Shown piece by piece: positions 34,727 through 40,139 of a stretch of 64,000 nucleotides of DNA. The notes beneath the pieces were generated by a model. It saw only the letters and a list, made by a program, of their open reading frames with translations. It was not told the origin of the DNA and searched no databases. Position numbers and translations under genes: made by a program. The DNA is taken from positions 415-64,414 of the forward strand of contig JAAVZO010000034.1 in the NCBI GenBank assembly GCA_022791685.1, written 5' to 3'. Position 1 is the stretch's first letter. Each line of letters begins with the position of its first letter. The stretch comes from Clostridiales bacterium (GTDB taxonomy: Bacteria; Bacillota; Clostridia; Oscillospirales; CAG-272).

Positions 34727-37054
34727 ATGGAAATGTGTGCAAGATGCCACAAGCGTGTCGCTGTGGTTTATGTCACTAAAATCGAAAACGGTGAAACTAT
34801 TACCGAAGGTATCTGCCTGAAATGCGCAAAAGAACTCGGTATCAAGCCGGTAAATGATATCCTTGAAAAAATGGGGGTTTCCGGCGACGACCTCGACGAG
34901 ATATCCGACCAGTTCACTGAAAATATGCAGAATATGATTCCCACCCCCGAATCGGACGGCGACGGCGAAACTCCGCCAAATCCAATGGGCGGCGCGCCAG
35001 CTATGGACATCGCGAAGCTCTTCCGCAGCTTTGGCGTATCGTCGAACAAGCGCCCCGAAAATAGTGCAGATAGTAATAAGGAAGGAAAACGCGACGAAAA
35101 GAAGGACACGAGCCGTGACGCGCGGAAACAGGGCAAGCTGAAGTATCTGACGACATATTGCCAGAACCTCAATCAAAAGGCGCTCGACGGTAAAATCGAC
35201 ACGATAGTCGGACGCGAGCGTGAGCTCGACCGCATCGTTCAGATTTTGTCGCGCCGCCAGAAGAACAACCCTTGTCTCATCGGCGAGCCGGGCGTTGGTA
35301 AGACCGCCATTGCGGAAGCGCTCGCTCAGAAAATAGCACAAAACAACGTCCCCGACAAGCTGCTCGGAAAGCAGATATACCTTGTCGACCTCACGGCGAT
35401 AGTCGCAGGCACGCAGTTCCGCGGGCAGTTCGAGTCGCGTATGCTCGGACTCATCAACGAGGTCAAGGAGCAAGGCAACGCGATACTCGTGATCGACGAG
35501 GTACACAACATCGCCGGAGCAGGCGACGCTGAGGGTTCGATGAACGCCGCGAACATCCTGAAACCGGCGCTTTCCCGCGGCGAAATACAGGTGATTGGCG
35601 CAACGACGCTCGACGAATACCGCAAGTATATCGAGAAGGATTCGGCGCTCGAACGCCGCTTCCAGCCGGTAATGGTCGACGAGCCGTCTATCGAGGACAG
35701 CCAACAGGTAATACTCGGTATCAAGCATTATTATGAGGAATTCCATCAGGTCAAGATTCCGGACGATATCGCACGCCGTGCGGTGACTCTCGCCGAGCGC
35801 TATATCACCGACCGCTTCCTGCCCGACAAGGCGATAGACCTCATCGACGAAGCGTCGGCTCACGTCTCGCTGACCTCGCCTGTGCTGAATGAATACAACA
35901 AAGTCGCCGCTGAGCTTGAGTCGGCTAAGAATGAACGCGAACAGCTTGAACAAAAATCCGACGATGATGTCGAGCGTTATCAGCGTATCGCTGAATTGCA
36001 GACGGCTGAATTGCAGCTCAGCGATAAATTGAAGTCGCTCGAAGCTGCGAAGGAAAGCGTCGAAGTTACGCTCGACGACCTTGCAAGCGTTATCGAGATA
36101 TGGACTGGCGTTCCAGCTACTACAATCGGCGAGAACGAGTTCCTGCGTCTCGACAAACTCGAAGCGCGCTTGAAGGAGCATATCGTAGGTCAGGATGAGG
36201 CTGTGTCGGCGGTCGTTCGCGCGATAAAACGCGGACGTGCGGGTGTTTCGTACAAGCGCAAGCCGGTGTCGTTCATTTTCGCCGGACCGACCGGAGTCGG
36301 AAAGACCGAGCTCGTCAAAACTATCGCGACCGACCTGTTCAACTCTCCCGACGCTCTGATCCGCCTCGACATGACCGAGTACATGGAAAAGCATGCGGTA
36401 TCGAAAATTATCGGTTCACCTCCCGGCTACGTCGGCTACGATGAAGCTGGCCAGCTCACCGAAAAAATACGCCGCAAGCCCTACTCTGTTGTGCTGCTTG
36501 ACGAAATTGAAAAGGCACATCCCGACGTGTTGAACATTCTGCTGCAAGTGCTCGACGACGGCAAGATCACCGACTCGCACGGCAAGGTTGTAAACTTCGA
36601 AAATGCGATACTCGTAATGACGACCAACGCAGGTTCGAGCACCGGTTCGGGCTATGCCGGATTCGGAACTAACGCAGCGTCGATGGCAGAAAACAAGACC
36701 GAAAAAGCACTCTCCGAATTTTTGCGTCCTGAATTTATCAATCGAGTAGACGAAATCGTCACCTTCCGCGCACTCGAAGAAGCTGATTTTGTCGAAATTG
36801 CACGTATAATGATAGGCGAGCTTCAGAAGGCGCTCGAAGAAAAGCAGATAATCGTCCGCTGCACCGATGCTGCGCTCGCAGTCATCGCGAAGAAGGCGTT
36901 CTCGCGCAAATACGGTGCGCGCAACCTCCGCCGTTATATCCAGACCGAGGTAGAGGACAAAATCGCCGCTGAAATCATTTCCAACTACACAAAGAAATTG
37001 GAAGCGGTTGGAATTGACGCGGATGGCGACAACCTCTCGTACAGCTTTATTTGA
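34727..37054 (+). CDS. Two-ring Clp/Hsp100 AAA+ ATPase (ClpC-like) with an N-terminal zinc ribbon instead of Clp_N repeats
   Basis: D1 has GEPGVGKTAIAEAL and ILVIDEVH. A short coiled-coil middle region follows. D2 has FAGPTGVGKTELVK and VVLLDEIEKAH. A YAGFG loop is present. The N-terminus has C5xxC8...C30xxC33, then an acidic/basic low-complexity linker. Confidence 0.85.
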   Translation: MEMCARCHKRVAVVYVTKIENGETITEGICLKCAKELGIKPVNDILEKMGVSGDDLDEISDQFTENMQNMIPTPESDGDGETPPNPMGGAPAMDIAKLFRSFGVSSNKRPENSADSNKEGKRDEKKDTSRDARKQGKLKYLTTYCQNLNQKALDGKIDTIVGRERELDRIVQILSRRQKNNPCLIGEPGVGKTAIAEALAQKIAQNNVPDKLLGKQIYLVDLTAIVAGTQFRGQFESRMLGLINEVKEQGNAILVIDEVHNIAGAGDAEGSMNAANILKPALSRGEIQVIGATTLDEYRKYIEKDSALERRFQPVMVDEPSIEDSQQVILGIKHYYEEFHQVKIPDDIARRAVTLAERYITDRFLPDKAIDLIDEASAHVSLTSPVLNEYNKVAAELESAKNEREQLEQKSDDDVERYQRIAELQTAELQLSDKLKSLEAAKESVEVTLDDLASVIEIWTGVPATTIGENEFLRLDKLEARLKEHIVGQDEAVSAVVRAIKRGRAGVSYKRKPVSFIFAGPTGVGKTELVKTIATDLFNSPDALIRLDMTEYMEKHAVSKIIGSPPGYVGYDEAGQLTEKIRRKPYSVVLLDEIEKAHPDVLNILLQVLDDGKITDSHGKVVNFENAILVMTTNAGSSTGSGYAGFGTNAASMAENKTEKALSEFLRPEFINRVDEIVTFRALEEADFVEIARIMIGELQKALEEKQIIVRCTDAALAVIAKKAFSRKYGARNLRRYIQTEVEDKIAAEIISNYTKKLEAVGIDADGDNLSYSFI

Positions 37055-37075
37055 TGAAGCTATTGTAAAATAATC

Positions 37076-39856: not shown

Positions 39857-39890
39857 CTTGAGCATTATGCTATTTGGGAGATGATATAAA

Positions 39891-40139
39891 ATGGATTTTA
39901 TATTCGAATTTATTGCAACGTTGGCATTAGAACTCGGCATTGAAATAGCAGGAGATTCGAAAGTGAGTCGGTGGATCAAGTATCCATTATTTGGTATTTT
40001 GTGCTTAGCTTTCTTATTTGTGCTTGCTCTAACATTGTATCAGAAAAACATACCAGCTGCGATTGCGCTGTGTGTGATGATAGTTGTTGGAATCTTCTTA
40101 GCTTTTATCGCCAAAAATGCAAAGGCAAGGAAGCGTTAA
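39891..40139 (+). CDS. Small membrane protein (82 aa, 2-3 TM)
   Basis: Hydrophobic ORF with RBS GGGAG and a basic C-terminal tail (KNAKARKR). Confidence 0.5.
   Translation: MDFIFEFIATLALELGIEIAGDSKVSRWIKYPLFGILCLAFLFVLALTLYQKNIPAAIALCVMIVVGIFLAFIAKNAKARKR

Follow-up and report, generated by a model that had tools for sequence, protein, structure and literature searches.

Gene content of the locus and the ClpE-type unfoldase

The DNA analysed here is a window of 64,000 nucleotides (nt) from the Clostridiales bacterium assembly GCA_022791685.1 (contig JAAVZO010000034.1). Our subject is a conserved unit of four genes on its + strand, where all features given below lie. In this order, the genes encode a DUF5711 protein, a CvpA-family protein, a ClpE-type Hsp100 unfoldase of 775 amino acids (aa) with a predicted zinc ribbon (34727..37054; hereafter Zn-Clp), and a degenerate P2-type ATPase paralogue of 926 aa with about 10 transmembrane (TM) helices (37076..39856; hereafter the pseudo-ATPase). 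Zn-Clp was assigned by Pfam, NCBIfam, and PDB matches and by a tree, the pseudo-ATPase by Pfam, a motif table, and an AlphaFold model. The gene of the ClpE-type unfoldase belongs to the core set in a large order of gut Clostridia and is not an accessory one, and in one sub-clade it is fixed in a predicted operon with three membrane proteins, one of which is a “dead” P-type ATPase. The pair had been pointed out in a first-pass annotation of this DNA, whose coordinates for the open reading frames (ORFs), the ribbon, and the gap between the two genes all hold; the DUF5711 and CvpA genes upstream and a UDG-family gene downstream lay outside the stretch that it described.

Zn-Clp matches the Pfam families AAA, AAA_lid_9, AAA_2, and ClpB_D2-small and has no Clp_N match, which agrees with its annotation as a protein with two intact AAA+ rings and without the Clp_N domain. 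Alignment with ClpC, ClpE, and ClpB places the Walker A motif of AAA-1 (GEPGVGKT) at 35282..35305; alignment likewise gives its Walker B (IDEVH) at ~35489-35506 and the Walker A (GPTGVGKT, 36284..36307) and Walker B (LLDEIEKA, 36494-36517) of AAA-2, so that neither ring has lost either motif. The only Clp_N match of the whole genome is in a separate ClpC of 821 aa, encoded on contig C26 in a ctsR-mcsA-mcsB-clpC operon. The AAA+ core of Zn-Clp is like that of ClpC from the McsA/McsB system; in contrast to ClpC, however, Zn-Clp lacks the Clp_N repeats and with them the sites at which MecA and phospho-arginine are known to dock.

The N-terminus is formed by a ribbon of four cysteines (C5, C8, C30, and C33; 34739..34825), which is predicted to bind zinc and is strongly kept in all 27 orthologues compared. 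The ribbon had been likened to the zinc-binding domain of ClpX, but no zf-C4_ClpX match was obtained for residues 1-156 even at E<=10. Its best match among solved structures, at 34733-34837 of the window, is the N-terminal zinc finger of McsA (8wtb_B, E=1e-4), and the genome's own McsA, encoded on C26, begins with the same Cys pattern. The ribbon is thus of the ClpE/McsA type and resembles the first of the McsA zinc fingers. The charged low-complexity linker reported to follow it is confirmed at about 100 aa (approximately residues 45-140; 34859..35146); it is first acidic and then basic and gives no family match, and the PDB alignments of Zn-Clp to ClpC1 and ClpE begin at residue 141.

The M-domain of Zn-Clp is short: one unbroken alignment to ClpC (residues 98-766 versus 123-797) covers it, whereas the alignments to ClpB are split here into two stretches. 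The predicted ClpP-docking loop of AAA-2 contains the tripeptide AGF (residues 644-646; 36656..36664), and this YAGFG loop, which the first-pass annotation had proposed to examine for ClpP docking, has AGF where the alignment shows VGF in ClpC and ClpE. All 28 Zn-Clp orthologues examined carry an xGF tripeptide, which ClpB and ClpL lack. In its shortness and its insertion–deletion pattern, the loop follows ClpE from Bacilli and not ClpC, and ClpP genes occur in the same genome.

ClpE of Enterococcus faecalis has its zinc centre (C3, C6, C29, and C32) in a conserved N-subdomain, and its definition also includes a disordered second subdomain, a ClpC-like M-domain, and a VGF motif for ClpP (PMC13125188). 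For comparison, we extracted the ClpE proteins from Enterococcus, Ligilactobacillus, and Lacticaseibacillus genomes; all three have the pattern CxxC-x22-CxxC, then a low-complexity linker, and then AAA-1. More generally, ClpE of Bacilli (B. subtilis, L. lactis, and E. faecalis) has the same CxxC-x21/22-CxxC centre and disordered linker as Zn-Clp and likewise combines the lack of Clp_N with two AAA+ rings, a short ClpC-like M-domain, and a short xGF loop. The clostridial protein differs in having AGF instead of VGF and a longer linker without the DPFGF motif. The biochemical characterisation of ClpE dates only from 2026 and presents it as an autonomous, monocistronic, CtsR-controlled stress protease (PMC13125188), whereas Zn-Clp is not monocistronic, has no CtsR operator in the window, and is an order-wide core gene rather than an accessory stress gene.

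By PDB score, Zn-Clp is closest to ClpC (657 bits, the best solved structure), followed by E. faecalis ClpE (29hb_b, 596 bits), and its identity is 48-50% to ClpC and 44-47% to ClpE of Bacilli. In a maximum-likelihood tree, the clostridial Zn-Clp proteins comprise one deep clade of their own (100/100) with a long stem, which is not nested within ClpE of Bacilli; Zn-Clp, (ClpC+ClpB), and (ClpE+ClpL) of Bacilli join at an unresolved three-way node. Given this node, we class Zn-Clp as ClpE-type by its predicted architecture and not by orthology to ClpE of Bacilli.

Zn-Clp is a core gene of this clostridial order: it is present in 352 of 401 genomes and in all 30 families, full-length and aligned from residues 1-3. 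It cannot be considered an unusual Clp subtype, as had been supposed, since its architecture is that of ClpE (PMC13125188), it belongs to the core genes, and in most families it occurs without the ATPase. Control by CtsR was considered and rejected: although ctsR exists in the genome, there is no CtsR direct-repeat operator near Zn-Clp, and the one match elsewhere, with two mismatches, is at the chance level.

Some single observations concern the Zn-Clp records themselves. One family member (G406) has two Zn-Clp genes, L136 (G406:C28) and L107 (G406:C77), one of which stands in a normal four-gene unit; the second has diverged (52-55% identity), branches basally in the tree, and is devoid of partner genes. 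In a relative (L185, 1583-3907), Zn-Clp was called as two genes of 256 and 504 aa, which indicates a frameshift or a metagenome assembly error. The records L002, L004, and L016 are labelled as Selenomonadaceae, Lachnospiraceae, and Candidatus Colimorpha (shown under Bacteroidota); their Zn-Clp proteins nest within the window's own family in the tree, and these public taxon labels look unreliable.

The degenerate P2-type ATPase

The neighbour of Zn-Clp had been described as a catalytically dead P-type ATPase, and indeed every catalytic signature is missing. The protein matches the Pfam families E1-E2_ATPase, Cation_ATPase_N, and Cation_ATPase_C and gives no match to the HAD hydrolase domain PF00702. 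A database search placed it in a clade of ~95 clusters (29-100% identity), none of them with PF00702, which is apart from the canonical pumps.

The motifs were compared in an alignment of 28 members of the pseudo-ATPase family with five canonical Ca-ATPases. In the window protein, the dephosphorylation motif TGES is replaced by TGVQ (37577..37588), the phosphorylated Asp of DKTGT by Pro338 (38087..38089, within LIVPKDGMIT, so that PKDGM stands at the DKTGT position), the Mg2+-site motif GDGVND of the P-domain by AGGING (38960..38977; GGINGA when read against GDGxND), and TGD by TTE. Pro occupies the phosphorylation site in 28/28 family members, and Asp in 5/5 canonical controls. All 28 members are devoid of DKTGT, TGES, DPPR, TGD, and GDGxND; in all of them, the Lys of the N-domain motif KGAPE is changed to Arg (RGGAE in the window protein) and PEGL to SEL or SEF.

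At the ion site, the TM4 Glu and the TM6 Asp are invariant in the 28 members, while the Ca-site Glu of TM5 is replaced by Arg or Lys in 28/28, so that Asn-x-x-Glu (NIGE in canonical pumps) reads Gln-x-x-Arg/Lys; the ion-site Asn and Thr of TM6 are also lost (the TM5-TM6 segment comprises residues ~727-765, window 39254-39370). These substitutions suggest that, with the Arg/Lys of TM5, the protein itself places a positive charge in what was once the ion site. Judged from these residues, the loss of the phosphorylation, dephosphorylation, and Mg/nucleotide motifs together with Arg/Lys in place of the Ca-site Glu makes ATP-driven pumping impossible, and the pseudo-ATPase cannot work as an ATP-driven pump.

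According to its AlphaFold model (pLDDT 82, pTM 0.78), the protein is predicted to keep the whole P2-type fold, including the A, P, and N domains and 10 TM helices. Over the full length, Foldseek recovered SPCA1, SERCA, Na,K-ATPase, and LMCA1 with a TM-score of up to 0.77 and with E values from 1e-40 to 1e-44 for SPCA1, SERCA, and LMCA1. With the P2A Ca2+-ATPases (SERCA, SPCA1, Listeria LMCA1, and B. subtilis YloB), the pseudo-ATPase has the overall fold, the TM4 Glu, and the TM6 Asp in common, but it differs from them in the lack of catalytic motifs, and its identity to canonical pumps is 16-25%.

The loss of all catalytic motifs could be a sign of a decaying pseudogene or of an annotation artefact, its linkage to Zn-Clp being a relic. 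The fast divergence of the protein may be read in the same way: among genera of the window's own family, the identity to the window protein is 20-43%, while that of Zn-Clp is 57-67%. Against this stand the ORFs of 60 loci, which run for 800-1100 aa without interruption and encode 8-11 TM helices, the confident model of the full fold, the family-specific invariant columns (for example, Pro338), and a ratio of nonsynonymous to synonymous substitution rates (dN/dS) of ~0.1. In comparisons with the two nearest relatives, dN/dS is 0.09-0.12 for the pseudo-ATPase, 0.09 for Zn-Clp, and 0.14-0.21 for CvpA, the ratios being rough because dS is near saturation. We consider decay or artefact hardly credible and rejected it on the basis of the intact ORFs, the fold model, and dN/dS. 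The pseudo-ATPase is under purifying selection, and the low dN/dS together with the full fold shows that this non-catalytic pump paralogue is being maintained and is no pseudogene.

In the genome assembly, which is 85.7% complete, the only other P-type ATPase is a frame of 755 aa on C15; neither ClpB nor a canonical P2A Ca-ATPase was found. In L107, the pseudo-ATPase is closely followed, in convergent orientation, by the gene of a canonical P2A pump (10852-13398) that has 44% identity to a canonical Ca-ATPase, and the paralogue and its likely parent type are neighbours there.

Gene spacing and conservation of the unit

The genes of the unit are closely packed. The DUF5711 gene (32666..33958) is followed after 11 nt by the CvpA-family gene (33970..34686), which ends 40 nt before Zn-Clp; the latter is preceded by an AAGGAG Shine-Dalgarno sequence 10 nt upstream. 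The gap of 21 nt between Zn-Clp and the pseudo-ATPase (37055..37075) had been reported to have no Shine-Dalgarno site, and no GGAGG-like site was found in it here either, which makes this gap a candidate for translational coupling. In the related loci, this gap has a median of ~24 nt and does not exceed 60 nt in 36 of 44 cases, and in the two nearest relatives (L185 and L186) it is reduced to 1 nt. A consensus scan revealed no promoter-like site on the + strand from 33,694 to 40,287 and no terminator-like site between the genes from CvpA to the end of the pseudo-ATPase, the sole signal of the latter kind in this region being one weak hairpin inside the pseudo-ATPase gene. An internal promoter or terminator separating Zn-Clp from the pseudo-ATPase, which would speak for two transcripts according to the first-pass annotation, is therefore not seen in the sequence. 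We infer that the two genes are probably co-transcribed and translationally coupled.

To define the distribution of the pair, several samples were combined. The search for related loci used a generic A-domain pattern, and most of the 80 loci it returned are canonical pumps; L001-L017 and L019 were used, L019 being the most divergent public locus (25% identity), the catalytic motifs of which were left outside the motif check. In 16 of these 18 public pseudo-ATPase loci, Zn-Clp is located directly upstream, usually after DUF5711 and CvpA. A profile search of the order sample with the pseudo-ATPase yielded 11 full-length matches, all adjoining Zn-Clp; this profile recognised only the closer members (11 genomes), while the divergent ones scored like canonical pumps, and therefore the distribution was established from the loci downstream of Zn-Clp.

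In the window's own family (f1), one genome was taken for each of 61 genera, and 52 Zn-Clp loci were fetched, one of the contigs ending too early. An ATPase-like polytopic ORF of 800-1100 aa follows Zn-Clp immediately in 37 of 50 genera and is missing in 13, and none of 44 neighbour ORFs from this family has DKTGT, TGES, TGD, or GDGxND. In the second and third families with the pairing (f8 and f17), it was found in 7/7 and 9/10 loci, respectively; the 16 neighbours from these families are likewise degenerate in their motifs, and DKTGT does not occur in any of the 60 Clp-linked neighbours. Among 22 loci from 11 other families, none has the pseudo-ATPase after Zn-Clp (0/22). The synteny put forward in the first-pass annotation is thus real within f1, f8, and f17, but it does not extend to Zn-Clp in general, which often occurs without the pseudo-ATPase.

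When the Zn-Clp tree is rooted with ClpC and ClpE, the carriers of the pairing all fall into one clade composed of f1, f8, and f17 plus one f6 locus (support 0.945). The presence and absence of the pseudo-ATPase are explained by 13 changes on this tree, which fits one gain followed by ~12 losses. The four-gene unit is vertically inherited in one sub-clade comprising three families. The flanking PolA, UDG, and AlaS genes adjoin the unit only in a few close relatives, and therefore the unit is kept while its surroundings change.

In L114 (G179:C5), an ORF of 1155 aa with 8 TM helices begins 163 nt past Zn-Clp, and neither the pseudo-ATPase nor a canonical pump matches it above 60 bits in tblastn; this ORF may represent the family member that has diverged furthest or an unrelated replacement.

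A possible membrane-linked degradation module and competing explanations

Of the four conserved products, only Zn-Clp is soluble, the other three being membrane proteins, and DUF5711 with CvpA precedes Zn-Clp in most f1, f8, and f17 loci. The DUF5711 match is clear (PF18975, 76.7 bits at a cut-off of 26.3). The mechanical ORF starts at GTG 32558; ATG 32666 gives a protein of 430 aa that fits the orthologue lengths of 413-431 aa, and this ATG is most likely the start. In its AlphaFold model (pLDDT 82), a TM helix (residues 16-46) is followed by an all-beta propeller, for which Foldseek found only generic WD40, YVTN, and YxaL propellers; DUF5711 is a single-pass membrane protein, its propeller presumably lying outside the cytoplasm. 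CvpA is a polytopic membrane protein (PF02674, 72 bits at a cut-off of 29.3).

The predicted products of the conserved unit suggest a membrane-linked protein-degradation module. The reading that we prefer, to which we give an even chance, is that the pseudo-ATPase represents the membrane partner of a ClpE-ClpP protease, serving as its tether, adaptor, or client. As a tether or adaptor, it would bring unfolding and proteolysis to the membrane; alternatively, as a client, it would have its level set by the protease. In either role, the pseudo-ATPase would probably act jointly with the upstream membrane proteins DUF5711 and CvpA. Our literature search found no paper on the pairing of Zn-Clp with the pseudo-ATPase, on a bacterial pseudo-P-type ATPase family, or on DUF5711.

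A number of observations weigh against such a partnership. Zn-Clp occurs in all 30 families sampled and the pseudo-ATPase in three, and the 13 of 50 f1 genera that lost the pseudo-ATPase kept Zn-Clp. In two loci, the pseudo-ATPase is located elsewhere: beside an ABC-2 permease and a PBP gene in L001 and after Dus and HAD genes in L012. Fourteen columns of Zn-Clp discriminate the carriers of the pseudo-ATPase; the carrier residues are retained in the f1 genera without the ATPase, and therefore these columns mark the lineage only. Clearly, Zn-Clp does not depend on the pseudo-ATPase. In addition, ClpE of E. faecalis works autonomously without adaptors (PMC13125188). Finally, both in the window and in the relatives, the co-directional string of genes continues past the unit into UDG, GDSL, GNAT, and MtnA genes, and therefore operon membership is a weak guide to function.

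These facts are also compatible with mere co-expression, in which the pseudo-ATPase would be an independent membrane protein (for example, one that senses cations, lets ions pass passively, or has a structural role) that was inserted once behind a constitutive housekeeping gene and was kept there for its promoter, with no tie to Clp. We hold this to be a serious alternative with roughly one chance in three. It accounts for the run of unrelated genes behind the unit, where UDG even overlaps the ATPase stop in L186, for the core status of Zn-Clp and its independence from the pseudo-ATPase, for the repeated losses of the latter without a visible change in Zn-Clp, and for the persistence of two relocated copies away from Clp, while the invariant TM4 Glu and TM6 Asp would fit a membrane role of its own. 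However, it does not easily explain why the two genes stayed adjacent as three families and over 60 genera diverged and the flanking genes changed, why the gaps are very short and often without a ribosome-binding site, or why 16 of the 18 independently found pseudo-ATPase members adjoin Zn-Clp.

Another possibility concerns the upstream pair. Zn-Clp may act on or with DUF5711 or CvpA, and not the pseudo-ATPase, in an envelope or membrane stress module comprising the whole unit, to which the pseudo-ATPase was added later as a dispensable component. In some families without the pseudo-ATPase (f19, f25, f6, and f2), and also in the f1 genera that lost it, DUF5711 and/or CvpA precede Zn-Clp. The MarP-type proteases, in which a CvpA-like membrane domain is fused to a serine protease, provide a precedent for combining a CvpA-type domain with proteolysis, and residues 5-59 of CvpA weakly match the NCBIfam family of this type. 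Nevertheless, there is no fusion at this locus, and the match of the CvpA N-terminus (23.6 bits) is far below the family cut-off of 250 bits. The upstream pair was not detected in f10, f30, f22, f15, and f24 at the sensitivity of tblastn, and a stress module of this kind leaves the fixed place of the pseudo-ATPase beside Clp unexplained. We consider it improbable.

A more specific version of the preferred partnership of the pseudo-ATPase with ClpE-ClpP can be proposed, although we regard it as rather unlikely. The pseudo-ATPase would be a dedicated membrane receptor of the protease, having given up catalysis, filled its ion site with the built-in Arg/Lys, and repurposed its cytosolic headpiece for docking or gating the unfoldase; with DUF5711 and CvpA as further parts, the result would be a trans-membrane protease for signalling or quality control that is split over several proteins. 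The analogy with FtsH, in which an AAA+ unfoldase and a peptidase act at the membrane, is only functional: in FtsH, the anchor, the ATPase, and the protease are one polypeptide, while here the anchor would be a separate pseudo-transporter. If the receptor version is true, the unit would correspond to FtsH in a two-component form, and a bacterial pseudo-P-type ATPase would for the first time have a function assigned to it. The idea that the module replaces FtsH was rejected, since the genome carries two FtsH genes.

If Zn-Clp and the pseudo-ATPase cooperate, Clp proteolysis would reach the membrane by a new route, and a pump paralogue would have met a new fate. Otherwise, a function has still to be found for the pseudo-ATPase family, and the constant location of its genes offers a starting point for this.

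The region downstream of the pseudo-ATPase is less stable. It starts, 34 nt past the pseudo-ATPase, with an ORF of 82 aa (39891..40139) with two hydrophobic segments and its own GGGAG site. Its position was given correctly by the first-pass annotation, but its proposed membership in the module is not supported, as it is not conserved even in the nearest relatives. The ORF has no Pfam or NCBIfam match and no tblastn match at E<=1 in ~185 related loci, and the best value elsewhere in the genome is 0.19. The 82-aa protein was therefore rejected as a module member, with no homologue in the fetched loci; it is a local orphan.

The next gene, a member of the UDG superfamily (40143..40628, Pfam PF03167), begins 3 nt past the 82-aa ORF and is kept at this place only in close relatives. 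In L186, nothing corresponds to the 82-aa ORF, and UDG overlaps the pseudo-ATPase stop by 4 nt. In L185, the pseudo-ATPase of which is 76% identical to that of the window, the slot between the ATPase and UDG genes is occupied by an Imm5_like gene (6821-7345, 174 aa), and this slot seems to be open to insertions.

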